Positions 5,990-60,694 of a stretch of 64,000 bases of DNA are shown in pieces. This DNA is from a virus (taxonomy: Duplodnaviria > Heunggongvirae > Uroviricota > Caudoviricetes), in IMG/VR virus record IMGVR_UViG_3300037067_009442, positions 1 through 64,000 of that record. One strand, 5' to 3'. The stretch's first letter is position 1; each line of letters begins with the position of its first letter. The position numbers and the translations under genes were made by a program. The notes below the pieces were generated by a model, which saw nothing but the letters and a program-made list of their open reading frames with translations, was not told the origin of the DNA and ran no database searches.

Positions 5990-6793
5990 ATGCAAGCAGT
6001 ACAGATGGTCAATACAGATCTTCCGGACGTCCTAGAGCTGAGGGACGTTCGCCAAGTCTACAAGGACCCTAACGGGAAGGAGAACGTCGTCATTGACGGG
6101 TTGAACCTCTTGATCGAAGACCAACCTGATAAAGGTGAGTTCGTGGTAATCCTTGGTTCTTCTGGATGCGGGAAGAGCCACATCCTTCGCTATGCTAGTG
6201 GCCTTCAAACACCCACCTCAGGTGAAGTCTTGATAGGAGGTAGGGCTCGGAAGGCTACCGACTACGTAGGGATGATCTTTCAGTCTTACTCCTCTTTCGA
6301 ACACTACACAGTACTTGAGAACGTTGAGCTCGGTTTGTACTACCGTGGGGTCTCTAAAAAGGAGCGTAGGACTAAGGCGCTGGAGATCATTGAGAAGGTA
6401 GGACTCGCCGGTCACGAGAACAAGTTCGCCAAATACCCCAACCTCTCTGGGGGTCAGCTCCAACGGGTGGCAATCGCTAGAAGCCTCGCCTATGAAGGGA
6501 GGATCTTGTTGATGGATGAGCCCTTTGGTGCCCTGGACATCGAGACTCGAGCTCAGATGCAGGACATGTTGGCGGAGATTTGGCTGAACATCACTCCGAC
6601 GATCATCATGGTGACTCATGCCATTGATGAAGCTGTTTACCTAGGGGACACCATCTATGTGATGGGACGGAACCCAGGGAACATCGTCAAGGAATTCAGG
6701 TCCCCGCTACCTCTGGCACGTAACCGCGGGATGAAGCGGAGCCCTGAGTTCCTTCGATCCGTGCATGAGATCGAAGATTTCATGCACGGTTAG
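5990..6793 (+). CDS. ABC transporter ATP-binding protein (TauB/SsuB-like)
   Basis: Walker A GSSGCGKS, LSGGQ signature, Walker B LLMDEPF, VTH. Confidence 0.95.
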   Translation: MQAVQMVNTDLPDVLELRDVRQVYKDPNGKENVVIDGLNLLIEDQPDKGEFVVILGSSGCGKSHILRYASGLQTPTSGEVLIGGRARKATDYVGMIFQSYSSFEHYTVLENVELGLYYRGVSKKERRTKALEIIEKVGLAGHENKFAKYPNLSGGQLQRVAIARSLAYEGRILLMDEPFGALDIETRAQMQDMLAEIWLNITPTIIMVTHAIDEAVYLGDTIYVMGRNPGNIVKEFRSPLPLARNRGMKRSPEFLRSVHEIEDFMHG

Positions 6794-7593
6794 ATTGGGT
6801 CTTCTCTCTCAAAGCGAGTAGGTCGTACTATTGCAGCCGCCCTACTCGCTACCTGATCGGCTACTATAACCCTACCGGGTTCTCCCCTAGTAAACCTGAC
6901 TACTAGGCTGCTATGATACTGCATGGTAGACCCATCTCGAGGGACTACCAACCTACTCCGATCACAATGAGTAGAGTACTCTCTTGAGTAATTGAGAACC
7001 CCTAGTACATCGTCTACCATTGAAGTGGCGATCATTTGGCAATCTACACACTCATATACATAGTGTGTTCGAGTGTCATATCGATTACCAGCGGACCTTG
7101 CACTGCGAGGGATGTACCTCCAGTTATGCATGAGGTGTCTACTCGCATGAGGTAGATATTCCCTAGGAGTCAAGTCACGAGATATGTGGCAGTGTCTGCA
7201 GCTCTCATCAAGGTGGAAGCCAAAGCAGTCACAACCTTCCATGTCACAGGACCAAACCCGTACCAAGCTGTCCATGGAACAGTTGATACAATCCGAGGAG
7301 TGAGTACCCTCTAGGAGTTGATGGGTGCTTGGAGGGGGTTGAGGCTCCTGATTCACCCCTCGGATTTGCTGTCTCGTTCGTGCATGACTCACAGCCAAAC
7401 TAGCTGCTACTTGAGCATCTTGCTCAATTTCCCGAAGACCTCTACCTGTACCCATCATAAGAGCGAGAGTGGGAGCAAGATAGAGAGTTAGAGCTGCCTC
7501 GGTGGTTTCACCGGCGGTATCCCGATCGACACCCTCATCTACGAGGGTGTCGATCATGTCCTCAGCTAGATCTACAATATCTCTGGCGGGCAT
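6790..7593 (-). CDS. Cys/His-rich hypothetical protein with C-terminal PTRFER tag
   Basis: Several CxxC; ends RPTRFEREDPI. Confidence 0.75.
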   Translation of the reverse strand: MPARDIVDLAEDMIDTLVDEGVDRDTAGETTEAALTLYLAPTLALMMGTGRGLREIEQDAQVAASLAVSHARTRQQIRGVNQEPQPPPSTHQLLEGTHSSDCINCSMDSLVRVWSCDMEGCDCFGFHLDESCRHCHISRDLTPREYLPHASRHLMHNWRYIPRSARSAGNRYDTRTHYVYECVDCQMIATSMVDDVLGVLNYSREYSTHCDRSRLVVPRDGSTMQYHSSLVVRFTRGEPGRVIVADQVASRAAAIVRPTRFEREDPI

Positions 7594-7599
7594 TGAGTG

Positions 7600-8088
7600 C
7601 TATCGGTGGAAACCCCAAGGCCCAAAGCCCATAGGGAACATCGGCTCCCTACTACGGGAAAGGCCTTCCAAGTCCGCTTTGGCCTTATCCAACTGACCCC
7701 TAAGTTCAGCATTTTCGACCGCTAAACGGACAAATGACCACAGATCGTTACTAGTTGGAGGGCTTTTCAACCACTCCAGGATAGTATTTTTATCGCAGTT
7801 ATCGAGTATCTCAATGACTCGTTCAGAACCGATCCTTTCCAGAGCTGAACTGATAGTGAGAGTACTCGTGCTGTGGTTCCAATTGATGTCTAGAAACCTA
7901 GAAACCTTCTCTCCAAGAAAGGTCAAGTGTACCGTATCAAATACCCTACCTAGGGTACTTAGCTTGGGATCACATAGCGAAGTGCTGATTGGCTTCAGTT
8001 CGCGGAGTGCTTGGATGTGTTCGGGGTAGGTTTCTTTTTTAGTGTCCTTACAGGCCATTCCACTCTGGTACTCTAAAGTACCCTGCAT
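7600..8088 (-). CDS. hypothetical protein
   Basis: Packed in minus-strand run. Confidence 0.6.
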   Translation of the reverse strand: MQGTLEYQSGMACKDTKKETYPEHIQALRELKPISTSLCDPKLSTLGRVFDTVHLTFLGEKVSRFLDINWNHSTSTLTISSALERIGSERVIEILDNCDKNTILEWLKSPPTSNDLWSFVRLAVENAELRGQLDKAKADLEGLSRSREPMFPMGFGPWGFHR

Positions 8089-8103
8089 GTAAAGGGTATT
8101 GAG

Positions 8104-8382
8104 TCAAATGCTTGACTTGGCGCTACTTTTTTCAATCTTTTCGAGGAGACTCTTGTTGCAAGAGTACTTGAAGGCCTCAAGTGCCATCATGCAGAGGTGC
8201 CAGGTAAGCACTAGGAGGAGTAGCTTTCGGTCAGGGGTTCCGGTAGCGTGAAGGGTCATGACCGCAGTTAGGATCGGAACTCCGCTGAATATTGCGATTC
8301 TGTAAGAGTACCGGGTCAACTGGCAATGGAACCAAGCCTTCGATCGGGGATTAGAGAATTGAGGCTCTTCTAAGCTTTTCAT
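8104..8382 (-). CDS. small membrane protein
   Basis: Two hydrophobic segments. Confidence 0.6.
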   Translation of the reverse strand: MKSLEEPQFSNPRSKAWFHCQLTRYSYRIAIFSGVPILTAVMTLHATGTPDRKLLLLVLTWHLCMMALEAFKYSCNKSLLEKIEKSSAKSSI

Positions 8383-8385
8383 GAG

Positions 8386-8595
8386 TCAGCGAAAGATCCT
8401 AGCTACTTTACCCTTACCTTGCAAGGTAGAATGCTTCACGTCACGTTGGTCGGAGGTCCCGCAGATCTCACACTCTCCTTTGCCGTGTTTGCATTCAGTT
8501 CTCGGCGGCCCTTCTGGGGGTCCGACTAAAACCTCAGTCATACCACCAAAACAGTCGAAGGGGCCATAGATTCTTGGCCAGCGATGTTTACTCAT
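8386..8595 (-). CDS. small Cys/His protein
   Basis: CKH...CEIC; ATGA coupling. Confidence 0.6.
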   Translation of the reverse strand: MSKHRWPRIYGPFDCFGGMTEVLVGPPEGPPRTECKHGKGECEICGTSDQRDVKHSTLQGKGKVARIFR

Positions 8596-9101
8596 GGGAC
8601 ACTCATAAGGTAGAAGTAAGGGGGAGTACTTGCACCTGTTACCTGCACTTCAAGGTCTTGAACCCTTAGCTGTAAGGATTGAACTGCACTGATCAGGGTG
8701 TTGATTGTCGAACCATATCTAGTTGCATTCTCAGTCAGGACTTGCACCTCTCTTTGAAGAACACTGATGGTATCATCTATCTGGTAAGAAGAGTTGCCCG
8801 AGGAGACAGAGATGTTGCTAAGATCTCCGCCACCGGTGATCCCTACTCCAAATTGGATAGGAGCTACAAGTTGCGAGGGATCTCTATCTACATAGTCCCT
8901 CATGACAGCATCGTTTGGGATCCCTATCGCATACCTTAGTGAATCTACCGCATCACTTCTAGGGGGCACTCCTGTCATCTCCTCAATGAGATGGTGCCTT
9001 CGAGCAACCTCTTTCTGTAGGTCCTGAGCGAAAGTAAGGGGTTTAATTTCAACCACCTTGGGTCTAATTTCGGCCCAATACTCCTCAAGATCGTCAGCCA
9101 T
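8592..9101 (-). CDS. hypothetical protein with N-terminal DDLEEYW tag
   Basis: Likely start MADDLEEYW at 9101, 9 nt after GGTGTA box; C-terminal coiled coil. Confidence 0.75.
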   Translation of the reverse strand: MADDLEEYWAEIRPKVVEIKPLTFAQDLQKEVARRHHLIEEMTGVPPRSDAVDSLRYAIGIPNDAVMRDYVDRDPSQLVAPIQFGVGITGGGDLSNISVSSGNSSYQIDDTISVLQREVQVLTENATRYGSTINTLISAVQSLQLRVQDLEVQVTGASTPPYFYLMSVP

Positions 9102-9166
9102 CCAGGCTATTACACCAGTAGCCTTGTCTTTTTTGAAACCTTGGTGTAGGGTTTGGCACCAAAACC

Positions 9167-9796
9167 ATGGATTACCCAGTGTATCTGTTATTCCTAGCCA
9201 ACCTAGCCGCCGCCTACCTCTACGGGTATAAGCGAGGCCATCGAGAAGGTATCGCAGTAGGTAAATCCTTGGTCTTTTCGTCCCCATCCGTGAGGCCATT
9301 CAGGCAAGGAGAGTCAATACCCCCTCCCCCATCGTTAGACTCAAGTGACCGCCTACCTCATACCAACCTAGCCGCCGCACTACCTAAAGTGGATTACCCT
9401 ATAGTGCTTGGAAACTACTCAATACTGAGGAATGGGGTGATCCTACGTGGGGAAAGTGAGATCGCTATTATCGATGACTCGCCTTTTGAGTTTGAGTGGT
9501 TACCAGATGTACAAAAGCTGAAGTCTGATGATGAGCACTGCCGCAAGCTAACTAGGTTATGGTTTGAGAGCTTCGGGGTTGATGATGGGTATACTCTCAC
9601 CCTCGAGGGTTATTGGGTCTCAAGGGGCGGGTTGTTCTGGAAGGGGGACCTCATTCTCGGTAGAGTAGAAGGAGGGGGTTACCATCAGTTCAATTGCGTC
9701 AACCAGTATTATGGGAAACCAACTCCGGAAGACATAGAAAAGTGCAAGAAGCTGTATGACCTTTGGTTGACTGAGTTTCTCTCGGATCGATCATGA
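9167..9796 (+). CDS. membrane-anchored hypothetical protein
   Basis: N-terminal TM helix; internally duplicated motif (C.KL..LW). Confidence 0.7.
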   Translation: MDYPVYLLFLANLAAAYLYGYKRGHREGIAVGKSLVFSSPSVRPFRQGESIPPPPSLDSSDRLPHTNLAAALPKVDYPIVLGNYSILRNGVILRGESEIAIIDDSPFEFEWLPDVQKLKSDDEHCRKLTRLWFESFGVDDGYTLTLEGYWVSRGGLFWKGDLILGRVEGGGYHQFNCVNQYYGKPTPEDIEKCKKLYDLWLTEFLSDRS

Positions 9797-9844
9797 GCTC
9801 TAGATTTGTAGCCCCTAACTTGACTGATTCGGGGTATAGGCAAA

Positions 9845-10162
9845 TTGATGGCCGAAGACACTAAAGTCCACCTCACCGACACCAAGCTCCTTGAAGAGCT
9901 CATCGATAGCGAGAAGCTCAACCCAGAGGAGGAAGAGGCGTTCGCAGGGATGCTGAAGGACCTCACCTCCAAGAAGTACCACAAGCTCACTCAACGTCAG
10001 CGAGTCTGGGCAGAACTCACTCACAAGAGGTTCGGTTTGGATCCAGGGTCCGCTAACCTCGTAAGCTCAGGTCAGGTGAAGGTAACCGAGAAGGAGCGAG
10101 CAGGGCTCCAAGAGTTCATCACCTCTCTGGGCCCCAAGAAACTCAGACCTCCAGGTCGCTAG
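9845..10162 (+). CDS. hypothetical protein
   Basis: Protein-like ORF. Confidence 0.7.
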   Translation: MMAEDTKVHLTDTKLLEELIDSEKLNPEEEEAFAGMLKDLTSKKYHKLTQRQRVWAELTHKRFGLDPGSANLVSSGQVKVTEKERAGLQEFITSLGPKKLRPPGR

Positions 10163-10258
10163 TGGTTCAACCAGTTATTAATCCCTGACTCTAATGGGTC
10201 AAAAAACTATTTTGACTAAAAAGTTGAGATTTGCTGCCCTTATGAGTAGTAGTAGGTC

Positions 10259-12074: not shown

Positions 12075-12104
12075 CGCGAACAGGCGACCGGTGTACCTGG
12101 TAGT

Positions 12105-13016: not shown

Positions 13017-13031
13017 TGGTGTAATACGGTC

Positions 13032-13559
13032 ATGCTCAACAGGATCGAAGCTATTAACGGGGACATTACAACGCTCGAAGTGGACGTCATTGTCAACGCT
13101 GCCAATGAGAGAATGCTTGGAGGCGGAGGTGTCGACCATGCCATTCACGCAGCAGCGGGTCCAGAGCTCCTAGAAGCCTGTAAGATGTTCCCCGAGGTCA
13201 GGCCTGACGTGAGGTGTCCAACTGGAGAAGCTCGCATCACAGCAGGCTTCAAGCTCCCTGCTAAGTATGTAGTTCACACCGTGGGACCCATCTGGAAAGG
13301 TGGGTCTAATCGTGAACCTGAGCTCTTGGCATCCGCTTACCTAGAGAGTTTGAAGTTGGCAGCTAGCTACAAGTCGATCGCTTTCCCATCCATCAGCGCC
13401 GGTGCTTATGGATACCCAGCAGCTCATGCTTGTGAGGTAGCTGTCCGTACGATCAAGGACTTCCTTAAGACCAACACAAGCCTCGAAAAGGTTTACCTTG
13501 TGTCGTACAACTCACCAGTGATCCTTGAACTACTGACTAGGATGATCCAGGTTATCTAG
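13032..13559 (+). CDS. macrodomain protein (O-acetyl-ADP-ribose deacetylase / ADP-ribosylhydrolase)
   Basis: [35 protein letters not shown]. Confidence 0.95.
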
Positions 13560-14251
13560 ATCACTTCATCTCGTTCAAACCTAGTAGGAGGGGGCTCTCG
13601 AGAGGCTTCCTCTTTTTTAGGTTCAAGTCCAACTAGATGTCTTGGTACTTGAAGCCCATCGGTTAAGATCTGGGCAAGCTCGGTCTGATCAGTTTGTAGC
13701 GGAGTACGTCGGAACCTTCGAGCTTCATCTAACCTAAGTCTCTGCTCTGACGTTAGACCGGTAGCTTCGAGAGTCCTACGTCTTAGGTGTTGAGTTCGTT
13801 CTTCTGCTACCCTGGCAAGCTCCGTCGCTGAAGTAGGAGATCCCAGTATCCCTGGGGGTACACTAGGAGGAGGGTTGATAGCGTGCCTCTCAGTTAGGAT
13901 GTTGGGATTTTCAGAGAGAAACTCCTCTACTCTGTTATCCAACGCTGTCCGTAGAGAGCTAATAACTAAGTCACAGCTCTCTCGGTTCCAGGGCCCTTCT
14001 CCAAGTTGGGTACAGTTGAAGTTGGTGACTTGGTAAACCCACTGACTCATATCCACCAGTCCTGAGTCAGGATCAGAGTCAGGAGTCACCTCTAGGGTCA
14101 CCGAGATAGTAGGCACTAGAGCTTTTTGAAGGTTAGGAGGTTCACTAGCTTTCGCTCCCAAGGGAGCTTCGAGCTTTGAGTCTGCCACCCTATGATGTAA
14201 ACCACATTTCCAAGTGCAGCTACTAATGTTCCGAGTTGACTGAACCACCAC
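13556..14251 (-). CDS. hypothetical protein with C-terminal PTRFER tag (start uncertain)
   Basis: Ends [12 protein letters not shown]; true start probably downstream of listed start. Confidence 0.65.
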
Positions 14252-17108: not shown

Positions 17109-17411
17109 ATGGCTGTCAGCTCTACCTATACCCTAGGAAACGCGGAAGAGAAAAACAAGGCCCATCCAACTACCTTCTTCATTCCCTCATGGGAACTGCG
17201 AGATGGGGTGACAGTAGGTACCCTTGTCAAACTCCTGTTTGAGGGGGTTGACGGACGAAGCGAACGTATGTGGGTTAAGGTTACTGAGGTTCTGTCGGGC
17301 CCTCAGTTCAAGGGGGTATTGGATAATGACGCCCTAAGCCCTCATCTTCCTAAGTGCGGGTCTGTCATTGAGTTTGGACCCGAGAACATCCTCAGTATCT
17401 ACGACATGTGA
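17109..17411 (+). CDS. DUF2314/YegJ-like protein
   Basis: ERMWVKV...FKGVLDND...IEF.PENI; TTGACA-type promoter at 17074. Confidence 0.6.
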   Translation: MAVSSTYTLGNAEEKNKAHPTTFFIPSWELRDGVTVGTLVKLLFEGVDGRSERMWVKVTEVLSGPQFKGVLDNDALSPHLPKCGSVIEFGPENILSIYDM

Positions 17412-17935
17412 TAGATCTGAACAGCATGGCCATCTTCATGCCATTGGATCTGACCCTTCAACACGGAGAAGGCAGTCAGGTATACAAGTGCAACCAGGCA
17501 TACAAGTGCAACCAGGAACTTCCTGGGTACGAGTTAGCTTTGGTAGTGGTCTACCATAAGATGGTGTTGGTCCTGGAGTATATAGGTCCAGGGTTGGAGT
17601 ATCTAAAGGATGACGGCTTCCTCGAGGAACACCTGAAGGAAGCTATCACCGATGAAGTAGATGGGGTCTACCTATGGAAAGGGATACTGGAGACCCGATC
17701 CAGTTGGGACTACTACAACGGGGATGGTGACTGCGAGGAATGGTTGGAGGGTACCTTCACCAAAGTTACAGAAGAAGAGTGGAAGCTTAACCTCGAGGGG
17801 GAGTACCTTTGGGACCCTACCCTTTGGCTCCTTAGCAAAGAGGAGACCGAGGAGCTTCTTGCTAAGAAAGAGGTGGAGTACCAACTGAAGTATGGATGGC
17901 CACCTACGAGGTTTCAGCGAGAGCCGGTTGTGTAG
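17408..17935 (+). CDS. hypothetical protein, paralog of 52196 ORF, with C-terminal PTRFQR tag
   Basis: IGPGL.Y, GV..W.G, L.GTF, EEW...LEG...WDP shared; ends PPTRFQREPVV. Confidence 0.8.
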   Translation: MIDLNSMAIFMPLDLTLQHGEGSQVYKCNQAYKCNQELPGYELALVVVYHKMVLVLEYIGPGLEYLKDDGFLEEHLKEAITDEVDGVYLWKGILETRSSWDYYNGDGDCEEWLEGTFTKVTEEEWKLNLEGEYLWDPTLWLLSKEETEELLAKKEVEYQLKYGWPPTRFQREPVV

Positions 17936-30704: not shown

Positions 30705-30878
30705 CTAACCCACCAACTTACCATCGACCATGACAGGGACAAGCGTCCCCTCCGGGTAGGGCCCACTATCCAGCCGTACCTTTATGACGAACGCTTTTGA
30801 CCCGTTCTTCCCAAGTTGGTCCACTGGAAAGGGCTCATTGTGCGAGGCCTTGTACCCATCGGTAAACTCGATATTCAT
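30705..30878 (-). CDS. 57-aa hypothetical protein (not in ORF track)
   Basis: MNIEFTDGYK...; fills the gap exactly. Confidence 0.55.
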   Translation of the reverse strand: MNIEFTDGYKASHNEPFPVDQLGKNGSKAFVIKVRLDSGPYPEGTLVPVMVDGKLVG

Positions 30879-31417
30879 GACTTCTTGGACTTTCGGCGAG
30901 GGGAGCGTGGAGGGAATAGATCAGGGAACCGTTCGGTGATGGTCCGAACCACCCCAACAAGGGTGGTATTGGGGTGTGATAAGTCTAGGTAATTACTGGT
31001 AACCCCTGGAGTACTCCGGAAGACCTCCATCTGAAGAGATTCCGCCGTTGGGGCACAGTGAGGGATCTTGACAAGAGTGATAACCCTTGGAGAACCTTGA
31101 ACTTGAGCGTACAGTCCTAAGTGGTCAGCCACTGTGTACATAGTGAGCTTGGCTACCTTGTAGTGACCGAGCTCGTGATTAATGTGCTCCATCCAGCCCT
31201 TGGCTTCTGCCAAGTAGTTACCACTCTTGACATTGGTCTCGAGGACTTTCTGGATGGCCCCTTGCAGTGCTTCTCGAACAGCTTTCTTGTTCTCATCGTA
31301 GAGAGTTGAATCCAAGCTTCCTTTCCGGTCTCGGGTCACCGAGGAAATGTAGCCTAGGATAGAACTCATCTCGAGGAGATGGCGGGCAGCTACTTTGGCG
31401 GCTTTCTCAGACTTCAT
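30875..31417 (-). CDS. hypothetical protein
   Basis: Class A promoter at 31418-31452. Confidence 0.75.
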   Translation of the reverse strand: MKSEKAAKVAARHLLEMSSILGYISSVTRDRKGSLDSTLYDENKKAVREALQGAIQKVLETNVKSGNYLAEAKGWMEHINHELGHYKVAKLTMYTVADHLGLYAQVQGSPRVITLVKIPHCAPTAESLQMEVFRSTPGVTSNYLDLSHPNTTLVGVVRTITERFPDLFPPRSPRRKSKKS

Positions 31418-31490: not shown

Positions 31491-31790
31491 ATGCCCACTG
31501 GAATGGACGAACTAATAGTCAGCATCATCGGCACTCATGAGTCTAGGCAAATCAATACCTTACGAGAGGTTGGGTCTGACCGGATCTTAGAGCTTGCCCC
31601 TGTCCGGGGCTCCGAGAGGGCTTCCATTGACCTGAGAATGCCTTCAGGAGCGACTCTGACTATCCCAGTGGAACCTGGAGCTATGACTCAGATCCTGGAT
31701 GCCTGGAAGGCTGAGGCCACTACAGGGGTTGCGGTACCCTCCCCTGAGGTCCCGCGGGCAACCCGGTTCGAACGCATACTTCAGGACTAG
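31491..31790 (+). CDS. hypothetical protein with C-terminal TRFER tag
   Basis: GGTGTA box 8 nt upstream; ends PRATRFERILQD. Confidence 0.75.
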   Translation: MPTGMDELIVSIIGTHESRQINTLREVGSDRILELAPVRGSERASIDLRMPSGATLTIPVEPGAMTQILDAWKAEATTGVAVPSPEVPRATRFERILQD

Positions 31791-33576: not shown

Positions 33577-34850
33577 TTGCAAGAACCTAACTTCCGGGTC
33601 ATAATAGGTTCCTTGATCTCTCTTTCACATAAGATCCGTCTCTACCCTAATAAGGAGGCAATGAAGTACTTGGCCAAGTCGGCCGGTACCTCAAGGTTCG
33701 CCTATAATTGGGCATTAGCTCGATGGAAAGAGAAGTACCTAGCTGGTGAGAAAACTTCAGCTTATGGTCTGGACAAGGAATTCAACGCCCGCAAGGGCTC
33801 TGACTTCCCTTGGACCTCCGAGGTTTCTAAATGGGTGACTCAGAAGGCTATTCAAGATCTTGGTGACTCTTTCAAGCGGTTCTTCAAGAAGCTCTCTAGG
33901 TATCCTAGGTTCAAGAAGAAAGGATCTTCTCACGACTCCTTCTATATCAACTCGAACCACCTAAGGATCTCCGGTAAGTATCTGAAGCTTCCGAAGCTTC
34001 AGGGTCATATCAAAATGGCTCAGACCCTCAGGTTCAAGGACGGTGAGGTTAAATTTGCTGTGATCTCCCGAGATTCCTGTGGGGATTGGTACGCTTCTTT
34101 TAGCTTTGAGATCTCAGAAGGGTCTTATGTCTACCCACACAAGTGCGAAAACCAAGCAGTTGTAGGGGTTGACTTAGGGATCAAAACGTTAGCTACTTGC
34201 TCCGATGGTACAAAGTTCGAGAACCCAAAGCCTTTGGCTCGGGCCCAGCGCAAGCTCCGAAGGAGCCAACGTCGCCTTGCCAGGAAAGTTAGGGGTTCCA
34301 AGAACCGAGCCAAAGCGAAGCTTTTGGTAGCTAGGGTTCATCGGAGGGTAACCAGAGTCAGGTTGGATTCAATCCATAACCTAACTTCTTGGTTGGTCAA
34401 AACCTTCCGGTTCATTGGGATCGAAGATCTGAACGTTCAAGGGATGATCAAGAACCACAAGCTTGCACGGGCGTTAGCCGATGCAAGCTTCGGTGAGATC
34501 CGTCGACAAACCGAGTATAAGTCGAAGCTATCTGAATCTCATGTAGTGGTAGCTGATCGGTTCTATCCGTCCTCGAAGAGGTGTTCCGATTGTGGAGAAA
34601 CCCTAGAGAGGCTGGACCTATCCGTGAGGGAATGGTCGTGCCCCTCTTGTGGAGTCATTCATGATCGTGATGAGAATGCCTCAACTAACCTAAGACTCGT
34701 CGCCGAGAGGTACTCGGAGACTATAAACGCTTGTGGAGAAGCTGTAAGGCCTGTGCAACGCCGCAAGGCGGGGCAGAGGCGAGCTTCATTGAAGCAAGAA
34801 TCAGTGAATCAGGTAGGAGAGGTTCTTACTTGAAACCTAAATGCCAAGCA
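33577..34850 (+). mobile_element. solo tnpB element (IS200/IS605/IS607-related, no tnpA); ends approximate
   Basis: Own TTGCAA-17-CATAAT promoter; 3' hairpin at the gene end; second copy at 42.8 kb. Confidence 0.65.
33613..34833 (+). CDS. tnpB: RNA-guided endonuclease TnpB (copy 1)
   Basis: N-terminal HTH_OrfB, RuvC GVDLG / IEDL / DRDENA intact, CxxC...CxxC; TTG start aligned with copy 2. Confidence 0.95.
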   Translation: MISLSHKIRLYPNKEAMKYLAKSAGTSRFAYNWALARWKEKYLAGEKTSAYGLDKEFNARKGSDFPWTSEVSKWVTQKAIQDLGDSFKRFFKKLSRYPRFKKKGSSHDSFYINSNHLRISGKYLKLPKLQGHIKMAQTLRFKDGEVKFAVISRDSCGDWYASFSFEISEGSYVYPHKCENQAVVGVDLGIKTLATCSDGTKFENPKPLARAQRKLRRSQRRLARKVRGSKNRAKAKLLVARVHRRVTRVRLDSIHNLTSWLVKTFRFIGIEDLNVQGMIKNHKLARALADASFGEIRRQTEYKSKLSESHVVVADRFYPSSKRCSDCGETLERLDLSVREWSCPSCGVIHDRDENASTNLRLVAERYSETINACGEAVRPVQRRKAGQRRASLKQESVNQVGEVLT

Positions 34851-42759: not shown

Positions 42760-44034
42760 TTGCTCTCCCCTCAACTCTAAGTTATAATAGGTTTCCTTGA
42801 TTTCTCTTTCTCACAAGATCCGGCTCAACCCTAATCGGGAGGCAATAATTTACTTGGCCAAGTCGGCCGGTACCTCAAGGTTTGCCTATAATTGGGCATT
42901 AGCTCGATGGAAAGAGAAGTACCTAGCTGATGAGAAGCCTACGGCTTTCCGCCTGAACGCGGAATTCAACGCCCGCAAGGGCTCTGACTTTCCTTGGACT
43001 TCCGAGGTATCCAAGTACTGCTGCCAGCAAGCCATTCTTGATCTTGGTGACTCCTTCAAGAGGTTCTTCAAGAAACTCACCAAGTACCCTAGGTTCAAGA
43101 AGAAAGGGGTCTCTCGTGATTCCTTCTACCTAGGGACCGATGTCATCAAGGTATCAGGGAAGTACCTGAAGCTTCCGAAGCTTCTTCAACCAATCAAGAT
43201 GGCTCAGGAGATCCGATTCCCCGAAGGTCGGATCCTCTCTTGTACAATCTCCAGGGACTCAGTAGGGGATTGGTACGCTTCATTCTCGATAGAGATCTCA
43301 GAAGGATCTTATGTCTACCCGCACAAGTGCGAAAACCAAGCAGTTGTAGGGGTTGATCTAGGGATCAAGACACTAGCTACTTGCTCCAATGGTACGAAGT
43401 TCGAGAACCCAAAGCCCTTGGCTCGGGCCCAGCGCAAGCTCCGAAGGAGCCAACGTCGCCTTGCCAAGAAGGTGAAGGGTTCTAAAAACCGAGCCAAAGC
43501 GAAGCTTTTGGTAGCTAGGGTTCATCGGAGGGTAACCAGGATCAGGTTGGATTCAATTCACCAAATGACATCCTGGTTGGTCAAAACCTTCCGGTTCATT
43601 GGGATCGAAGATCTGAACGTTCGAGGGATGATCAAGAACCACAAGCTTGCACGGGCGTTAGCCGATGCAAGCTTCGGTGAGATCCGTCGACAGATTGAAT
43701 ATAAATCGAAGCTATCTGAATCTCATGTAGTAGTAGCTGATCGGTTCTATCCGTCCTCGAAGAGGTGTTCCGATTGTGGAGAAACCCTAGAGAGGCTGGA
43801 CCTATCCGTGAGGGAATGGTCGTGCCTCTCTTGTGGGGTCATTCATGATCGTGATGAGAACGCCTCGATTAATCTAAGACTCGTCGCCGAGAGGTACTCG
43901 GAGACTTTAAACGCTTGTGGAGAAGCTGTAAGGCCTGTGCAACGCCGCAAGGCGGGGCATAGGCGGGCTTCATTGAAGCAAGAATCAGTTCATCTCATGG
44001 GGGTTAACTCATGAGACCTGAGTTCCGTCCAACG
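42760..44034 (+). mobile_element. solo tnpB element copy 2; ends approximate
   Basis: TTGCTC-17-TATAAT promoter; 3' hairpin tctcatg...catgaga. Confidence 0.65.
42797..44014 (+). CDS. tnpB: RNA-guided endonuclease TnpB (copy 2)
   Basis: Same motifs as copy 1; RuvC D/E/D intact. Confidence 0.95.
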   Translation: MISLSHKIRLNPNREAIIYLAKSAGTSRFAYNWALARWKEKYLADEKPTAFRLNAEFNARKGSDFPWTSEVSKYCCQQAILDLGDSFKRFFKKLTKYPRFKKKGVSRDSFYLGTDVIKVSGKYLKLPKLLQPIKMAQEIRFPEGRILSCTISRDSVGDWYASFSIEISEGSYVYPHKCENQAVVGVDLGIKTLATCSNGTKFENPKPLARAQRKLRRSQRRLAKKVKGSKNRAKAKLLVARVHRRVTRIRLDSIHQMTSWLVKTFRFIGIEDLNVRGMIKNHKLARALADASFGEIRRQIEYKSKLSESHVVVADRFYPSSKRCSDCGETLERLDLSVREWSCLSCGVIHDRDENASINLRLVAERYSETLNACGEAVRPVQRRKAGHRRASLKQESVHLMGVNS

Positions 44035-44783
44035 TGATCCTTTCTCTTGAGGTACAGGAGGACACTCTAGTCCTCAAGGGTATTCGGGATGAGTATCGCT
44101 ACCTAGGGTTCCTAGAGTTTGAGGGTGATGCTTTCCGAGGAGGGCTATCACCTTACGAGGCTCTTCAGGTAATTGTCTTTCCAAGTAGCACTAGGAAGGT
44201 ACCCTCACCTAGAATCCTTGAGTTTCACGATGAAGCCAGAGATGAGTTGAACTCCTGGATCATCTCCAATATTCCCAACCTTGGAGCCCTAAGGGCTGTA
44301 TCCAAGACTGTCAAGGATGAATCACCCAGTACCCTTAAGGGGAAGTCCCTAGGGGAGAAGGCTAGGATGGTTAACGGGAGCTTCCTGACCCTTCCTGTCC
44401 CGGGTTGGCTTAGGGTAGGACTCAAGCTTCGTGATAAGGCTTCGGGTGAGTTCTTTCGAGTCACTGTGGTGGGGCCCACTAAAATTGAGGTAGTCAACAC
44501 CTGTAGGAAGATGCGACCTGCTAGTACCTTCAGGATCGTAGGACTACATCAGACCTTCTATGGTCTCGAGTACTTCGAGTGTGACAGCTGTCGACAAAAA
44601 CCTGGGTCACCTACTCTCTGCTCCAATTGCTTAGAGCGTAGAACTGAGCATGGTAGGCTCAATTATTGTGAACTTCCTTCCTTCATTGACAGGGTGTACC
44701 TAGGGGGTCTAATCCCAGGGACCTCTCGAGAAGAGATAGACGACTTCATCCCTACTCGATTCGAACGTAACGAAGTGGTTTGA
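44034..44783 (+). CDS. hypothetical protein with Zn site and C-terminal PTRFER tag
   Basis: CDSC..KPGSPTLCSNC; ends IPTRFERNEVV. Confidence 0.75.
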   Translation: MILSLEVQEDTLVLKGIRDEYRYLGFLEFEGDAFRGGLSPYEALQVIVFPSSTRKVPSPRILEFHDEARDELNSWIISNIPNLGALRAVSKTVKDESPSTLKGKSLGEKARMVNGSFLTLPVPGWLRVGLKLRDKASGEFFRVTVVGPTKIEVVNTCRKMRPASTFRIVGLHQTFYGLEYFECDSCRQKPGSPTLCSNCLERRTEHGRLNYCELPSFIDRVYLGGLIPGTSREEIDDFIPTRFERNEVV

Positions 44784-48104: not shown

Positions 48105-48296
48105 ATGGCAGAACGATGTAATCTTTGCCCTCAGTGCCGTTCACGTCAAGTCGAAGTGGTGACCGTCCATAACCCGGACACTCAGGACATGAACTCGAAC
48201 GCTACCCTCAAATGCGGAGAGTGTGGCCACACTTGGGAGGATAGGGTTATGTCTGAGCACCACAGGGAGAAACGGAGAAGAGGTCTTGCTATATGA
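48105..48296 (+). CDS. small Zn-ribbon protein
   Basis: CPQC...CGECGHTW. Confidence 0.7.
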   Translation: MAERCNLCPQCRSRQVEVVTVHNPDTQDMNSNATLKCGECGHTWEDRVMSEHHREKRRRGLAI

Positions 48297-48643
48297 CTCC
48301 AGCTGCCAAGCACTACCTCGACTTCCTCTCTCTTAACGGCGAAGATCCTATCTCATTAGAGGGTATCCATAAGTCCATTGAGAGTCGGGTAGATACTCCT
48401 GAGGGTCGGGTAGAGTTGCTCAACCTTTGGCTCGAGTCAACTCACCTAGTGATAATCAACTCCAAGCGAAACCCCGAGACTCTCTTGGATAACATCCAAG
48501 AGGTTATTGCCTTCATTGCCATCTTCAACCCTGAAGAGATGCCTATCACTCAGATGTGTGAGGTCTGGAAGGTACTCAGGGAGTTAGCGGAGTTGACTTA
48601 CCCCCGCCCCACTAGATTTGAACACATCTTGAGAGGTGATTAG
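48293..48643 (+). CDS. paralog 1 of T..GR family, C-terminal PTRFEH tag
   Basis: Ends PRPTRFEHILRGD. Confidence 0.8.
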   Translation: MTPAAKHYLDFLSLNGEDPISLEGIHKSIESRVDTPEGRVELLNLWLESTHLVIINSKRNPETLLDNIQEVIAFIAIFNPEEMPITQMCEVWKVLRELAELTYPRPTRFEHILRGD

Positions 48644-48646
48644 ATC

Positions 48647-49087
48647 ATGGAGCCTCAATTCGAACGTTACATTGACTGGTACCTTGGTCTACAAGTTAGT
48701 GGTCCTACTAGCTTGAGTAGTAGGACCTTTAGGGAAATCGTTTCCGAGCACATTCAAACCAGAGTGGGGAGGCAGAGGTTAGTACAGAGTCTGCTTAACC
48801 CCTCAAGGTTGAGGATTCAATCTCACCATCGGAGTGGGTTGAGAGTACAACCGCTTCGAAGGCATATCCTCGAGATTGAGAACTTCATCGCTATTCTCCC
48901 TGACAATGAGCGGTTCACTGCCCCAGTTCAGGAATTGAGAACTATCCTTGTTGAGCTGATAGAATTGCTTGACGTAGACTTCAATAGGCCTCGGGCTGAG
49001 TCAGTACCAAGTGATCCTGAGGTAGAGGAGTACGAAGGTCCCCGCCCAACTCGTTTTGAACGCCTCTTCATGGATGAGGACTCCTGA
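48647..49087 (+). CDS. paralog 2 of T..GR family, C-terminal PTRFER tag
   Basis: Ends PRPTRFERLFMDEDS. Confidence 0.8.
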   Translation: MEPQFERYIDWYLGLQVSGPTSLSSRTFREIVSEHIQTRVGRQRLVQSLLNPSRLRIQSHHRSGLRVQPLRRHILEIENFIAILPDNERFTAPVQELRTILVELIELLDVDFNRPRAESVPSDPEVEEYEGPRPTRFERLFMDEDS

Positions 49088-49455
49088 TGGAACCACACCT
49101 CCAACAATACCTCGATTGGTGGGCTGCTTCACACCCTAAGTCACTAAGCGCTGAAGCCACTCTAATCACCATAACCCGAAGCATAGAGACCCCATTGGGA
49201 AGGGTCGGTTTGATTAATGCTTGGGTGAGCGCTGCTCGGTTTGAGATCAATCAAACCGCTCGGCCCCTTGGGAATAAGTACCCTCAATCACTGGTCAACC
49301 AAGCAAACCACCTCCTTGGTATCCTGACACCTGAGGAGTTACAGAGCCAACCCGCCCTGAACCTACTGGATGCCTACAGGGTTTTGGTAGGGATATGCAA
49401 TACCTACCCTGATACCAGACCTACAAGATTTGAGCACGTCCTAGAGGAACTATGA
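49087..49455 (+). CDS. paralog 3 of T..GR family, C-terminal PTRFEH tag
   Basis: Ends TRPTRFEHVLEEL. Confidence 0.8.
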   Translation: MEPHLQQYLDWWAASHPKSLSAEATLITITRSIETPLGRVGLINAWVSAARFEINQTARPLGNKYPQSLVNQANHLLGILTPEELQSQPALNLLDAYRVLVGICNTYPDTRPTRFEHVLEEL

Positions 49456-52195: not shown

Positions 52196-52570
52196 ATGGA
52201 CGAAGTGAAGATCCAAGAACTCAACCCTGAACTCATTGTAGACGTACCTTGGAAGTACCGTAAACCATGCCCTGATGACATGGCCCTCGTGGTAGTCCAT
52301 GAGGGGCGAGGTGAAATACTCGACCACATTGGCCCTGGACTTCAGTATGTTGAGGATTCCGGGATGAGGAGCGACTACTTCGATCCCTGCTGTGAAGGTC
52401 AATCCTCTGGGGTCTTCATCTGGGAAGGGCGAATGGCAACCGAGACGTATGCCAACGGGGAGCATGATTACTACCTTGATGGTACCTTTCGCCCTGCGAC
52501 CAAGGAAGAATGGTACGCCTACCTTGAAGGAAAACCCCCTTGGGATCCCTCCCGTTGGGTTGAGGGCTAG
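52196..52570 (+). CDS. hypothetical protein, untagged paralog of 17408 ORF
   Basis: Shared motifs, no PTRF tail. Confidence 0.8.
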   Translation: MDEVKIQELNPELIVDVPWKYRKPCPDDMALVVVHEGRGEILDHIGPGLQYVEDSGMRSDYFDPCCEGQSSGVFIWEGRMATETYANGEHDYYLDGTFRPATKEEWYAYLEGKPPWDPSRWVEG

Positions 52571-53269: not shown

Positions 53270-53289
53270 TCGGTGTAATGCAGCCCTAG

Positions 53290-54921: not shown

Positions 54922-54924
54922 GCC

Positions 54925-55239
54925 ATGTCAGTACCTTCAATCACTACCCTAGAAGCTCTCCAAGCGGATCTCAATAATCGTCAGGGGGTTCACGAAATCC
55001 TGTTCGTCAACGGTAAGCCTTACGTAGGAGAGATGGAGTTCAATCGTCGCAAGGGCTTCCATTGGGACGGTGGGAGAACTGGCAGTGTCTTCATTACCCC
55101 TCACGTTGACACTGCAAGTGAAGTGGTGCTAGTAGACCTCCAGTACCTTCGGCTTCGAAAGTGCATTCTCGAAACCAACGTGATACCCTACGAGAAGAAG
55201 CAGGAATGGAGAGCTATTGATCTCCCGGAAGACCGATGA
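54925..55239 (+). CDS. hypothetical protein
   Basis: Packed ORF. Confidence 0.65.
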   Translation: MSVPSITTLEALQADLNNRQGVHEILFVNGKPYVGEMEFNRRKGFHWDGGRTGSVFITPHVDTASEVVLVDLQYLRLRKCILETNVIPYEKKQEWRAIDLPEDR

Positions 55240-56591: not shown

Positions 56592-56651
56592 GTGTCAGAT
56601 CATTTACACCAAACCTCATGGATAAAGTACCTTTACTCATGACTCAGTGAG

Positions 56652-57842
56652 ATGACTATTCGTGACCCCTGGAAGGTGGAAGCCCAGACTCAAGCACCCA
56701 AAGCCGAACCTCACCGGTGGTTCCAGCGAATGGCTACTGATTGGTCAAAGAACAAGCAACCTGACCTAGGGCAGTACGCAAGTCACACGACCCCGTCCCA
56801 GTGGCTGGGACATACCTTGATGAAAGAAGCTATCGAAGGTGGGCCGTCCGTCCACGAAATAGCTATTGAGGGTGACTTTGCCATAAACCCTCTGAAGGTC
56901 CTTGATCGCATTGAGACGATGTGGCAGCTCCGCCCTATCTATCAGGTTCACGGTCACTCTGTGACCCTGATGTACTCAGGTACGGATCTCATGCTATCCG
57001 TGACCATCAATCAATTGAGTAACTCGGGGAACATCAACTTGGTCACCACTGACCAAAACAAGATCAAGATACTCAACAAGCTGGGGGAGGCCTTCTTCGC
57101 TCCAGAGAACCCTCTTGATGGGTTCATTTATGCTCTAGCCAAGGCCCCTATGGGTGGCTACACCTTGGTCAAAGTAGGATCCGCAGGGGAGCCTATTGAA
57201 CGAGGAAACTACTCTGAAGAGGTGATTACAGACTACGATCACATTGTGGCGGATCTGAAGACTGCCAACCCCTGTGGTCGACTCATCATCCTAGCTGGGC
57301 CACCTGGATCAGGTAAGACGTTCCTGGTTCGATCTCTCCTCCAAGAGATCCCAAGGGCTGCCTTCGTCCTAGTACCTGCTCACCTGGTCCAAGACTTGGG
57401 TTCACCTGAGCTCCTACCTGCTCTTGTACAGGTCAGGAGGGATGGCCTCAGTGGGGCTATCGTGCTGGTCATTGAGGACGCGGACAAGGTACTGGTCGAG
57501 AGGAAGAGTGGGGACATGAATGCCATCTCGGCCCTACTGAACCTCGGGGACGGAATTCTCGGTAGCTCCCTTGACGTAAGGATCCTTGCCACGACCAATG
57601 CTAGTGGACTAGAGATGGATGCGGCTACTCGAAGACCCGGACGCCTCTGTCGATACATCGAGGTTGGATCTCTATCTGCAGACCAAGCTTCCAAGGTGAT
57701 CCAGAGGGTTACGAGGAAGTCCTTCACCTTCAAAGAGGACGCCACCCTTGCAGAGATCTACCGTAAGGCTCGTGATCTTGGGTGGGTCCCACCACCCAAG
57801 AAGAGCTCAGATCCGGTTACCAAGGGCTTGGCAGTTCTCTAG
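56652..57842 (+). CDS. AAA+ ATPase
   Basis: GPPGSGKT, IEDAD, TTN, RRPGR. Confidence 0.9.
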   Translation: MTIRDPWKVEAQTQAPKAEPHRWFQRMATDWSKNKQPDLGQYASHTTPSQWLGHTLMKEAIEGGPSVHEIAIEGDFAINPLKVLDRIETMWQLRPIYQVHGHSVTLMYSGTDLMLSVTINQLSNSGNINLVTTDQNKIKILNKLGEAFFAPENPLDGFIYALAKAPMGGYTLVKVGSAGEPIERGNYSEEVITDYDHIVADLKTANPCGRLIILAGPPGSGKTFLVRSLLQEIPRAAFVLVPAHLVQDLGSPELLPALVQVRRDGLSGAIVLVIEDADKVLVERKSGDMNAISALLNLGDGILGSSLDVRILATTNASGLEMDAATRRPGRLCRYIEVGSLSADQASKVIQRVTRKSFTFKEDATLAEIYRKARDLGWVPPPKKSSDPVTKGLAVL

Positions 57843-57890
57843 CTAATACCCTTGACTAGTTACTCCCTTTCATCTAGGGATCCTGAACCT

Positions 57891-58205
57891 ATGGCACCAG
57901 AGATAGTCACCGACCTCAACTTCGAGGAAGAGGTCCTGAACTCCCCGATTCCTGTACTCGTGACCTTCACAGCCACTTGGTGTGGTCCCTGTAGAGCCCT
58001 TGCTCCCCTTATAGGTCAATTAGCCGTTGAGTTGGAGGGTAAGGTCAAGGTTGTCAAGGTAGACATCAATGAGTCACCTGCGACCTCCGAAAGGTATGAG
58101 GTTAAGGGGGTTCCAAACATTCAAGTATTCAAGGGCGGTAGTAGATCCGCACAGCACGTGGGGATCACAACGAAGAAGCACTTACTCGAGTTAGTAGGTC
58201 AGTAG
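57891..58205 (+). CDS. trxA: thioredoxin
   Basis: F.ATWCGPC, KVD, cis-Pro GVP. Confidence 0.92.
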   Translation: MAPEIVTDLNFEEEVLNSPIPVLVTFTATWCGPCRALAPLIGQLAVELEGKVKVVKVDINESPATSERYEVKGVPNIQVFKGGSRSAQHVGITTKKHLLELVGQ

Positions 58206-58229
58206 CCCCCAGACGGTGTAATACCTGTA

Positions 58230-58403
58230 ATGAAATGCCTATTGCTTTCCTTAGTGCTGCTTGGGCATAACCCAGATAAGTGCCTACCTCACTGTGACTC
58301 GACAGTGAAGTCTTGTAGGGCTTCGTGTGCATCAAAGACCTGGGATGAATGCCATGAGAAGTGTGAACGGGTAGGTCGAGAATGTAGAGATGAGTGCCCT
58401 TAG
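58230..58403 (+). CDS. 57-aa Cys-rich peptide with signal-like N-terminus (not in ORF track)
   Basis: GGTGTA box 9 nt upstream; CX3CX6CX3C twice. Confidence 0.7.
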   Translation: MKCLLLSLVLLGHNPDKCLPHCDSTVKSCRASCASKTWDECHEKCERVGRECRDECP

Positions 58404-58705
58404 ATCACGTCCTCACGTTCGAATCTAGTGGGGCGGGGGCCTGCATAACTCACTACCCGGTGATCAAACTGAGAACAAGGCATTGGTTGGAAGGGACTAT
58501 GTACAACGTATAACCCCTCACTACTGTTCTTTCGGATCAAATTGAGCCCAAGCTCCACTCCTGAAGCACAGCGGACTCGATAGTGTATAAGCAATCGGCC
58601 AATGGTCCTTTGTGCCTCTTCTGTCGTTTGGTAGCTTTTATCCTGATACTGGCGCCTGCTAGGGCAGTGCTGACAGTCCTCGCAGGTTAGGGCATCAGGG
58701 GGCAT
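58400..58705 (-). CDS. Cys-rich protein with C-terminal PTRFER tag
   Basis: CEDCQHC; ends PRPTRFEREDVI. Confidence 0.75.
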   Translation of the reverse strand: MPPDALTCEDCQHCPSRRQYQDKSYQTTEEAQRTIGRLLIHYRVRCASGVELGLNLIRKNSSEGLYVVHSPFQPMPCSQFDHRVVSYAGPRPTRFEREDVI

Positions 58706-59618
58706 CAGCCTTCACTTTTGGTTGAAATACCCGCCGACCATCCTCAGTGAGGGCCCATGTGTTCGTTACCTCGTGAAACATTGAGGGGTTAGCCATGAGA
58801 AGGAGTGCCTGAGCTAGCATCTGGTCATGAATGGGTACATGAGTCTTGGTTACGATGCAATACTCGAAGGTATCCCTTCCGTCTTCAACACGGAAGACAT
58901 TATGTTGAAATTTGTCGATGATGCGGTAGAGAAATCCGTCTGCCCCTCTGACATGGAAATACCTACTGGCCTCAAGTTCCTCTTTCTGCTCATCATTGAG
59001 GTGGGCTAGGAGGATGGTACGAGCTCGAGCTTGTACTTGAGTGCGGCGTTCCTCCGCCTTCTGCCTCTCCTCATTGATATGAGTTAGGCTCGGTACTAGA
59101 CCAGGTATGGTTCGGTCATACTCCCTACCGGCGAAAGATAGGCAGCTGTGCTCGATAATCCGGATAGGGTCCTGCCCCTCAAGATCAATACCTCGATGAG
59201 CCCCCTCAACGAAGACTAAGCCCCCATTGAATAGGACCCCATGACGGTCAAGAACTTGACCATTATCGGAGTCAAGAAACCCATCAAAGTTATCCCATCG
59301 ACAAGAAGACCGAACGACAAGGATCAGGGTCCCATCTTCATCCAGGAGCTCTCTACCAGCCTCTATCTCATCAGGGGTCTGTGTAGCCCTTGATTCCAAA
59401 CGAGCTCGCCTAAGGGACTCCAGACGACCTGGGAGGGCATCCACTAGGAGGGTTAGAGGCTCATCAATATCGAGATTGACGCAAGTCTTCCTCATCCCGT
59501 CCCTAGGTTCCCAATGGCCCTTTAGGGTTGGGTCCCACATATAAATATGGGGTACCTCAAACTCGAATACGGGGATCTGCCCGTCACCTAGTCGTTCAAT
59601 GAGTAAGTGAGTGCTCAT
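58695..59618 (-). CDS. hypothetical protein coupled to GG-ending protein
   Basis: C-terminal F.VRG.DG..YRI...YC...P..DQMLAQ.L.L. Confidence 0.75.
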   Translation of the reverse strand: MSTHLLIERLGDGQIPVFEFEVPHIYMWDPTLKGHWEPRDGMRKTCVNLDIDEPLTLLVDALPGRLESLRRARLESRATQTPDEIEAGRELLDEDGTLILVVRSSCRWDNFDGFLDSDNGQVLDRHGVLFNGGLVFVEGAHRGIDLEGQDPIRIIEHSCLSFAGREYDRTIPGLVPSLTHINEERQKAEERRTQVQARARTILLAHLNDEQKEELEASRYFHVRGADGFLYRIIDKFQHNVFRVEDGRDTFEYCIVTKTHVPIHDQMLAQALLLMANPSMFHEVTNTWALTEDGRRVFQPKVKADAP

Positions 59619-59944
59619 CCCCCGGCCATCTGAGGAGACACTACGTAGTCTCCCTTGGGGTCAAAGTCTCGAACCATCTCCGGTGCCGTGTAGAGGTAGC
59701 CGCCCGCTTTCGGACTGAACTCCTTGACAGGTTGGCCTTTAGTTCCACCCAATCGAGTTATCTTGAAGACCAGGAAGCCTTTTCCTCGAAGGGTATCGAA
59801 GTGCTCCTTGGCGGCGTCGCATTCGATCGGATTGTTTCGGTTCCACGTGTACTTCGTGTCACCGTTATGATCCAAGTGGGCGATACTGCCGGTATCCATT
59901 GTGCAGTCTTCTAGGGATTCAACAAGGCTTGGGGTCTGTTCCAT
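59615..59944 (-). CDS. small protein ending in di-glycine
   Basis: Ends SPQMAGG; GGTGTA box 9 nt upstream. Confidence 0.8.
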   Translation of the reverse strand: MEQTPSLVESLEDCTMDTGSIAHLDHNGDTKYTWNRNNPIECDAAKEHFDTLRGKGFLVFKITRLGGTKGQPVKEFSPKAGGYLYTAPEMVRDFDPKGDYVVSPQMAGG

Positions 59945-60023
59945 GGGTAAACCTACACCGAAAGAAGGTCTTTGGTCAATGAGAGACTAGGGTAGTTAAT
60001 TCTCCTATGCTTTGATAAGAATC

Positions 60024-60338
60024 ATGCCAGCCAAGATCGCTACTGCCGAAGACATTCAGAATGAGATCCGAACTCTTTGGGCAATGACCGAAGAGGAAGT
60101 CCCTAGTCGGGAGAAGTTGGCGGCAGCCCTCAATGATCTTGCAAGTAGGGTTGCGGGTAACCGAAGTGAACTCTCAAAGTGCTTGGATGATATTGCTGAC
60201 ACCGCTAGTAGTGCTTCTCGTAGTGCTAAGAATCCCAAGCATGGTAAGAAGTTGGTTGAGAGTGCCATCTATACCATGAAGGATTCTATCAGGCAGTTAG
60301 AGGGGCTCGTAAGCAGTACTGATTGGGAAACTGCTTAG
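60024..60338 (+). CDS. helical hypothetical protein
   Basis: MPAKIA... ORF. Confidence 0.65.
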   Translation: MPAKIATAEDIQNEIRTLWAMTEEEVPSREKLAAALNDLASRVAGNRSELSKCLDDIADTASSASRSAKNPKHGKKLVESAIYTMKDSIRQLEGLVSSTDWETA

Positions 60339-60694
60339 TACCGGAAGAGCCTACTCTCTTCAAAGATCTGCCCCTCCTCGAAGGGCGGGTCTTGGTCTGA
60401 CAGGACTAAGAGACTGTCGTTGGGGATATCTTCCGAAACTCCGATACCCGCCCCCCAAATATCTCCTTTACTATTAGGGTCCCCACCTTCAAGGATTCGT
60501 TCAAACCTAGTGGGTCGGTAGAGGCGGAGGTTATCAAAATTACTCCACACTTGCGTGTAAGTGCGGTTATTCATCCACACTTTAACTACCATGGACCCTT
60601 CACTTTCTACTTGAGCAAAGGCATCACAGAGAATGGTTCCAGTGATCATACCGAGACCGGAGGAGCTTCGGGGGCAGTAATCCCAAACTTCCAC
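60335..60694 (-). CDS. hypothetical protein with internal PTRFER motif
   Basis: LYRPTRFERILEG. Confidence 0.65.
   Translation of the reverse strand: MEVWDYCPRSSSGLGMITGTILCDAFAQVESEGSMVVKVWMNNRTYTQVWSNFDNLRLYRPTRFERILEGGDPNSKGDIWGAGIGVSEDIPNDSLLVLSDQDPPFEEGQIFEESRLFRY

Follow-up and report, generated by a model that had tools for sequence, protein, structure and literature searches.

A short peptide tag on many unrelated proteins of a giant phage and its relatives, with a putative common reader

The closest described counterparts of the element considered here, a short peptide tag borne by many proteins of an uncultured giant phage, come from several quarters. Phage T4 marks its internal proteins IPI-III, which are soluble cargo of the virion, with a capsid targeting sequence that stands at the N-terminus and is cleaved off. 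The poxvirus ankyrin/F-box-like and SOCS-box adaptors join diverse substrate-binding bodies to one C-terminal docking motif, and the tail of the adaptor SspB is of the L-R-V-V-K type. Both SspB and RssB have a ClpX-binding tail (XB), and one docking site is common to several adaptors (PMC7804408), while the ligand motif of GpsB is SRxxR(R/K) (bioRxiv 10.1101/427823). The tag reported here was studied in a stretch of 64,000 nucleotides (the window; IMG/VR record IMGVR_UViG_3300037067_009442), which is the first 64 kb of the phage's 228.6-kb contig. Its consensus is [TSND]-R-F-[ED]-R, followed by I-L or by x-x-V-I and the stop.

This tag is selected as a peptide and moves between unrelated genes, and it is a real, undescribed variant of short-motif addressing with a putative reader. 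An earlier, sequence-only reading of the window knew of no description of the motif, and our literature searches likewise found none, either of the motif or of arsenals of tagged capsid fragments, in the searchable literature, to which most subscription papers do not belong. We favor, at a probability of roughly 0.55, a docking handle on bait-like bodies that serves one putative cytoplasmic partner and does not load capsids.

Like the XB tail of the ClpX adaptors, the tag closes a variable body and a flexible Pro/Arg-rich linker with a short conserved terminal peptide, and these phages encode a ClpX with a zinc-binding domain. Unlike the XB tail, its consensus does not match the SspB-tail sequence, its predicted form is helical and capped, its carriers number about 60 in a genome where adaptors are few, and it works internally. 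With the T4 signal it shares the character of a short aromatic/aliphatic helical motif on unrelated phage proteins, but 52 of its 59 copies are C-terminal, some of its carriers are membrane proteins, and integrated elements have it too. Its helical [ST]-R-x-x-R on cytoplasmic tails, those of membrane proteins included, recalls the GpsB ligand, from which it differs in its nearly invariant Phe and in the residue after the motif, which is I, E, V or D and not R/K. The GpsB/DivIVA domain PF05103 was not found in the candidate host genome described below, which may be incomplete, or in four complete phages, with the control positive in 7 of 14 genomes. The poxvirus adaptor families are also a viral arsenal of varied bodies with a common C-terminal docking motif; they are, however, eukaryotic and ubiquitin-based and have a longer motif on a repeat scaffold, whereas the phage bodies are unrelated folds, in part derived from the phage's own capsid protein.

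Conservation of the tag as a peptide

A six-frame scan of the window for T-R-F-[EQD] gave 10 matches only, all in open reading frames (ORFs) that the sequence-only reading had listed, with strands and sequences as it gave them: nine terminal copies, 9 to 12 residues from the stop, and one internal copy (Table 1). That reading had placed the motif 3 to 7 residues before the stop; its terminal location stands, but 4 to 7 residues follow the last Arg or His. The 9:1 ratio has a binomial p of 7e-8 against the share of positions near the C-terminus, and shuffled proteins have a mean of 0.017 terminal matches. When this comparison, which had been proposed from the window, was extended to the whole contig, enrichment was again evident, with 7 copies internal and the remainder terminal among 1510 ORFs (p 3e-39). 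Tagged genes make up 57 of the 439 selected genes of the contig, about 1 in 8, and their products, stripped of the tag, fall into 49 BLAST families, or 43 if linking via relatives is allowed.

That the conservation lies in the peptide and not in a DNA repeat, as proposed earlier, is borne out by codon diversity. The copies draw on every one of the six Arg codons, on both Ser codon families and on each of the three stops, and a DNA pattern with free third positions has 44 matches in the genome, every one of which reads T-R-F-[ED]-R and none as Ser or Leu. For the five core tag codons, synonymous and nonsynonymous differences (pS and pN) are 0.68 and 0.014, with a nonsynonymous-to-synonymous rate ratio (dN/dS) of 0.008, over 19 orthologue pairs from two relatives; only pairs with both members tagged were taken, a choice that lowers pN. 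The dN/dS of the carrier bodies is 0.18, against 0.16 for untagged genes; bodies thus are functional and evolve like untagged genes, under far weaker constraint than the tag. Adjacent tagged genes share 4.4 of 7 silent bases and distant ones 3.5 of 7 (p 0.013), a slight likeness of neighboring tags that suggests that local duplication aids their spread.

The two subtypes distinguished earlier are both real, with 98 and 118 non-redundant copies. The length of subtype I is fixed, and its last two residues are aliphatic or Pro-aliphatic; subtype II has I-L and then an acidic tail of variable length. When each position was freed in turn, both Arg residues and the Phe were nearly fixed, the fourth position was mostly Glu or Asp, and the first was Thr, Ser or Asn, as in 112 of 112 copies of the closest five genomes. 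Thr or Ser with Glu or Asp three residues on is the pattern of a helix capping box. The stretch preceding the tag is rich in Pro and Glu. In an AlphaFold model of the 48647 protein (carriers are named by their first window coordinate), a helical body is followed by a disordered linker (residues 114-129) and a separate helix (136-145) that starts past the Thr, with a local confidence score (pLDDT) of only about 55-60 for the tag helix; a fold search with the model found generic helical bundles only (best Z 8.2). The model supports the view that the tag may be a capped, free short helix that terminates a flexible Pro-rich tail.

The end of a protein is not the only place for the tag. Subtype II also occurs N-terminally, twice on one mini-protein of 81-94 residues, and within a Ser/Thr kinase, whose loop copy is retained in a relative at only 40% identity; some copies lie 30-70 residues from the protein end. 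Several carriers have 48-63 residues and hence little beyond the tag. At genome position 95463 (minus strand) a tag ends a 23-codon frame that lacks a start codon and is probably the remnant of a broken gene.

Carriers in the phage, its relatives and integrated elements

The window carriers have no Pfam or PADLOC match and a sole PHROG match at E 0.09, and the tag-bearing tails have no match in NCBIfam. Sequence searches of the PDB gave chance-level matches only (top, ribosomal protein uS10, E 0.41), and an Atlas search gave nothing at 0.9 or above. For the region of the three genes starting at 48293, 48647 and 49087 (the trio), DNA of about 99% identity was found in two further sediment studies, and no RNA dataset is listed as holding the sequence.

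Apart from the trio, the carriers had been called unrelated. Within the window there is indeed no BLAST kinship among them, but the trio and the 60335 protein both hold pieces of the clade's major capsid protein, which matches PHROG 2522. The trio aligns with its residues 3-37 (hhalign E 1.3e-4, probability 54%). The 60335 protein aligns with residues 143-191 and beyond (pairwise E 6e-7), and its internal tag lines up with a Leu-x-x-Gly segment of the capsid protein; it may have originated there or have displaced the segment. These window carriers contain pieces of 34-95 residues in proteins of 116-146 residues and are not full-length capsid proteins able to build shells. In iterated searches, 20 of 366 tagged proteins and 13 of 2887 untagged ones proved to contain capsid pieces; these counts include orthologues and are not independent. 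Among 214 core proteins compared with family profiles, the capsid protein was the best match for five tagged families, the three largest and two smaller ones (E 2.5e-18, 1.3e-8, 0.0096, 0.002 and 3e-4), and capsid-matching families cover 14 of the 59 tagged proteins of this genome. One further tagged family copies the phage RecA-like protein, and the 31491 protein weakly matches (E 0.009) a core protein whose gene lies close to that for the capsid protein in a complete relative.

That relative, of 512 kb, has about 57-60 tagged genes, nearly all in its accessory half and almost none in its structural half. Across the clade the capsid protein is 92-98% identical, and phages so closely matched range from tag-rich to tag-poor. 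Genomes have dialects: T-R-F-E-R prevails here, Ser and Asp are more frequent in a 435-kb genome, and a 448-kb genome has S-R-F-D-L. Orthologue pairs have kept the tag in 157 cases and not in 33, often at just 25-55% body identity. Carriers include HU-like, RecA-like and Tad2-like proteins, as well as a kinase and a full nucleotidyltransferase. A hydropathy scan found carriers with one to three N-terminal membrane helices in six relatives and none in this contig; their long tails are probably cytoplasmic.

Long ORFs of the 512-kb relative encode ClpX, a Ycf46-like ATPase and polymerase A and, judged by eye, GroEL, a clamp and an actin-like protein; no RNA polymerase gene was recognized by eye among them. 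ClpX was found in every relative tested, tag-rich and tag-poor alike. At 277-295 kb of the 512-kb relative, both ClpX and the Ycf46-like AAA ATPase contain inteins; compared with that of the host, the zinc-binding domain of this ClpX is more basic. In a rough promoter assignment that leaves most tagged genes unassigned, tagged genes follow GGTGTA and sigma70-like promoters in a ratio of 17:4, against a background of 88:107. Promoter-like classes near start codons in the window are GTTGAGA-N17-TACGTAG (1310, 26530, 30875, 32166 and others) and GGTGTA (12105, 23401, 31491, 59615 and others).

The strict pattern, applied to 185,579 GTDB genomes, was found in one metagenome-assembled genome (MAG), that of the uncultured delta proteobacterium MFD01476.bin.3.99; family genomes of up to 16 Mb suggest that it belongs to the Polyangiaceae. 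Nine tagged proteins lie in three of its integrated elements, which are low in G+C (Table 1). In the smallest, a tagged ribbon-helix-helix-like regulator, whose homologues retain the tag, adjoins the integrase; one of the three elements has a VapE-like primase region. The clade capsid gene was not found in the MAG. Searches of 10 congeneric, 120 family-level and 400 phylum-level genomes gave the tag at no more than background frequency, which points to a trait of mobile elements in a narrow host group and not of host core genes, and we infer that the phage's host belongs to the narrow group of the tagged MAG. A myxobacterial C-terminus, R-F-x-L-L-E-L-D, was considered as a host original and rejected, being not enriched in 41 family genomes and without a match in the literature.

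A docking handle and its rivals

The sequence-only reading proposed a phage-wide tag for one receptor. Positional enrichment, purifying selection, retention in orthologues and dialects agree with this, and very probably there is one putative reader of Arg, Phe, Arg and two aliphatics that is cytoplasmic, serves soluble and membrane proteins and is usable by unrelated elements of the same host. Two of the purposes then suggested, virion packaging and import into a compartment, are disfavored: the tag is borne by membrane proteins and by integrated elements of a MAG where the clade capsid gene was not found, which argues against virion loading, and no RNA polymerase gene was recognized by eye among the long ORFs of the complete relative. 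The other two, proteolysis and a host hub, may apply.

What the handle would do for its carriers is a more tentative matter. Host STAND sensors recognize capsid, RecA and helicase folds (PMC13581612). This recognition, and a layout of body, linker and handle that matches protease adaptors such as SspB, lead us to favor a mechanism in which a carrier body would copy a piece of a conserved phage protein (capsid, RecA-like or HU-like) recognized by host sensors. The body would capture the sensor, and the handle would tie the captive to the common partner, so that the sensor would be silenced. The sensors baited would probably be those of capsid-sensing immunity. The capsid-sensing defenses Avs7/Dsr1 and CapRel are host proteins that capsid fragments could bind as decoys (PMC13581612, PMC13728456); neither paper was found to describe phage-encoded tagged capsid-fragment decoys. 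That many carriers are anti-defense adaptors of this kind seems to us possible at somewhat less than even odds. It is a guess, and a doubtful one, that the putative partner is an unfoldase or protease (host Clp, Lon or FtsH, or phage ClpX); a predicted complex of a 31-residue tag tail with two zinc-binding domains of the phage ClpX scored 0.02, which is evidence neither way. In its fullest and unlikely form, the idea is that myxobacterial jumbo phages and other elements share a modular anti-immunity platform of dozens of baits copied from the phages' own best-conserved proteins, in which a nine-residue handle would deliver host pattern-recognition proteins to one partner that destroys or locks them.

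Several points weigh against a handle on bait-like bodies, beginning with the low-biased pN and the non-independent counts given above. Capsid fragments account for only about a quarter of carriers, the capsid match of the third-largest family is weak (E 0.0096), and that of the trio, by its hhalign probability, is moderate. Untagged capsid-fragment proteins exist (genome 170057, 85490 and 142146), one of them immediately before a tagged gene. That the tag was not found above background in the congeneric, family and phylum genomes is odd if its partner is a conserved host protein, and the link between phage and host is indirect. Finally, the tagged regulator, kinase and nucleotidyltransferase are not bait-like; they fit a general tether or degron better than bait, and the handle may therefore serve several purposes.

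A plain degron, by which the tag sends its own carrier to a protease and so keeps accessory proteins and element regulators short-lived, is the strongest rival, though still an unlikely one. The tag is terminal on a disordered tail, the two final aliphatics of subtype I resemble known C-terminal degrons, a tagged regulator adjoins an integrase, and the phages encode ClpX. Subtype II, however, mostly ends in Asp or Glu, which usually protects a C-terminus; copies stand in a kinase loop and well inside other proteins, and two stand on one mini-protein; and relatives with few or no tags have ClpX too.

Two further explanations are equally improbable, and more so than a degron. The first makes the tag itself active, with many genes titrating or blocking one host protein, whether defense factor or protease, and the bodies acting separately. 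The shortest carriers are indeed little more than tag, constraint on the tag is about 20-fold that on the bodies, and the tag is common to unrelated elements of one host; but the bodies are under normal purifying selection (0.18), a single highly expressed gene would be a simpler titrator, and the arrangement of linker and tag suggests tethering. The second is a capsid-loading signal like that of T4, in which capsid-like pieces would help cargo to enter the head. A short helix with an aromatic and two aliphatics, the enrichment of capsid fragments among tagged proteins and the preference of tagged genes for the GGTGTA class, as roughly assigned, would suit it. Against it stand integral membrane carriers, the near absence of the tag from the structural half of the complete genome, its presence in elements of a MAG where the clade capsid gene was not found, and a different motif, R-V-A-x-R-F/Y, on core- and head-region proteins.

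Still less probable is a tag that brings its carriers to a place of assembly or a phage scaffold (actin-like protein, Ycf46-like AAA ATPase or procapsid), with capsid-like pieces that tune assembly or block competitors and with the elements as satellites that borrow the tag. Genome-specific dialects fit a phage-encoded reader, the tag is confined to one host genome among hundreds, and the VapE-like primase region of one element is as in satellites; yet with a capsid protein so nearly invariant across the clade, to poison competitors is to poison oneself, and nothing ties the elements to a helper. That the peptide only reflects a signal in DNA or RNA, such as a recombination site or one for re-initiation or termination, is largely refuted despite the silent bases shared by adjacent tagged genes, since synonymous sites are saturated, 40 copies are encoded by 29 different 15-mers, about a quarter of carriers face a convergent gene, and internal and N-terminal copies exist.

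Other features of the genome and significance

A second tag, D-[IVL]-E-x-[YF]-W and then R-P, is N-terminal; 13 proteins bear it in this genome and 17 in the complete relative, none of them together with the C-terminal one. The genes of the two tags lie next to each other in two relatives (p 0.0008 and 0.02), which is not the case here (p 0.27). Two other N-terminal motifs that recur among proteins are found at window 30875-31417 and 60012-60338: R/K-V-A/T-x-R-F/Y/H, on several proteins, and K-I-A-T-A-E-D-I-Q, on three. A clustered regularly interspaced short palindromic repeat (CRISPR) array with about 21 degenerate 36-bp repeats occupies 86.0-89.6 kb of the genome, beside a 656-residue protein with a TnpB/Cas12-like C-terminus; its spacer 17 encodes the tag in frame and matches the tag DNA of gene 143724 at 17 of 17 bases, which by rough estimate has about a 10% probability as a chance event.

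The window also has a complete ThiF/MoeB-family enzyme (62701-63435; PF00899, E 4e-73) that is present in the 512-kb relative too, and the likeness of the tag to its N-terminus, which is a normal ThiF start, we take as chance. A five-gene module at 1925-6793, with a binding-protein/OmpA fusion and an ABC transporter, is 46-70% conserved in the complete relative. Two ORFs of about 410 residues (33577-34833 and 42797-44014) have similar ends and by eye resemble TnpB-type genes of IS200/IS605.

Table 1. Tag carriers and second-tag positions in the window, and tagged integrated elements of the MAG
Feature	Coordinates or site	Strand	Tag	Subtype	Remarks
267-residue carrier	6790..7593	-	6793-6822	I	homologues share only the first 48 residues and the tag
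231-residue carrier	13556..14251	-	13559-13588	I	homologues at 32% identity retain the tag
175-residue carrier	17408..17935	+	17903-17932	I, Gln variant	untagged paralogue at 52196
99-residue carrier	31491..31790	+	31758-31787	II	
249-residue carrier	44034..44783	+	44751-44780	I	tagged paralogue at genome position 181453
Trio member 1	48293..48643	+	48608-48637	II	family with a capsid N-arm-like segment
Trio member 2	48647..49087	+	49046-49075		residues 23-56 resemble major capsid protein 2-35 (41% over 34 residues)
Trio member 3	49087..49455	+	49420-49449	II	
101-residue Cys-rich carrier	58400..58705	-	58403-58432	I, consensus	
119-residue copy of major capsid protein ~143-235	60335..60694	-	60485-60514		internal tag, in register with the capsid segment
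Second (N-terminal) tag	9057-9092(-), 14840, 15342, 16450, 16628, 29066(-), 41227, 55245				
MAG element, 41-kb island	tRNA-Leu				35-bp att repeats
MAG element, 97-kb island	tRNA-Ser				35-bp att repeats
MAG element, 4-kb integrase element	tRNA-Thr				the other three proteins bear four tag copies

The selection estimate, the dialects, the copies on membrane proteins and in a loop, and the integrated elements are new in this analysis, which also goes beyond the sequence-only reading in the capsid-fragment bodies, the internal and N-terminal copies and the sharing with elements that are not phages. A tag that can stand at either end or in a loop is portable and could become a tool for myxobacteria.

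In these phages the tag is a common handle on about 60 orphan proteins per genome, and its presence in small integrated elements as well suggests that several parasites use a docking site at the level of the host. As the capsid protein is almost invariant, tagged capsid fragments are a possible way for a phage with a trigger that it cannot change to evade capsid-sensing immunity. If true, such an anti-immunity platform would be a bacterial counterpart of the F-box adaptor arsenals of viruses.

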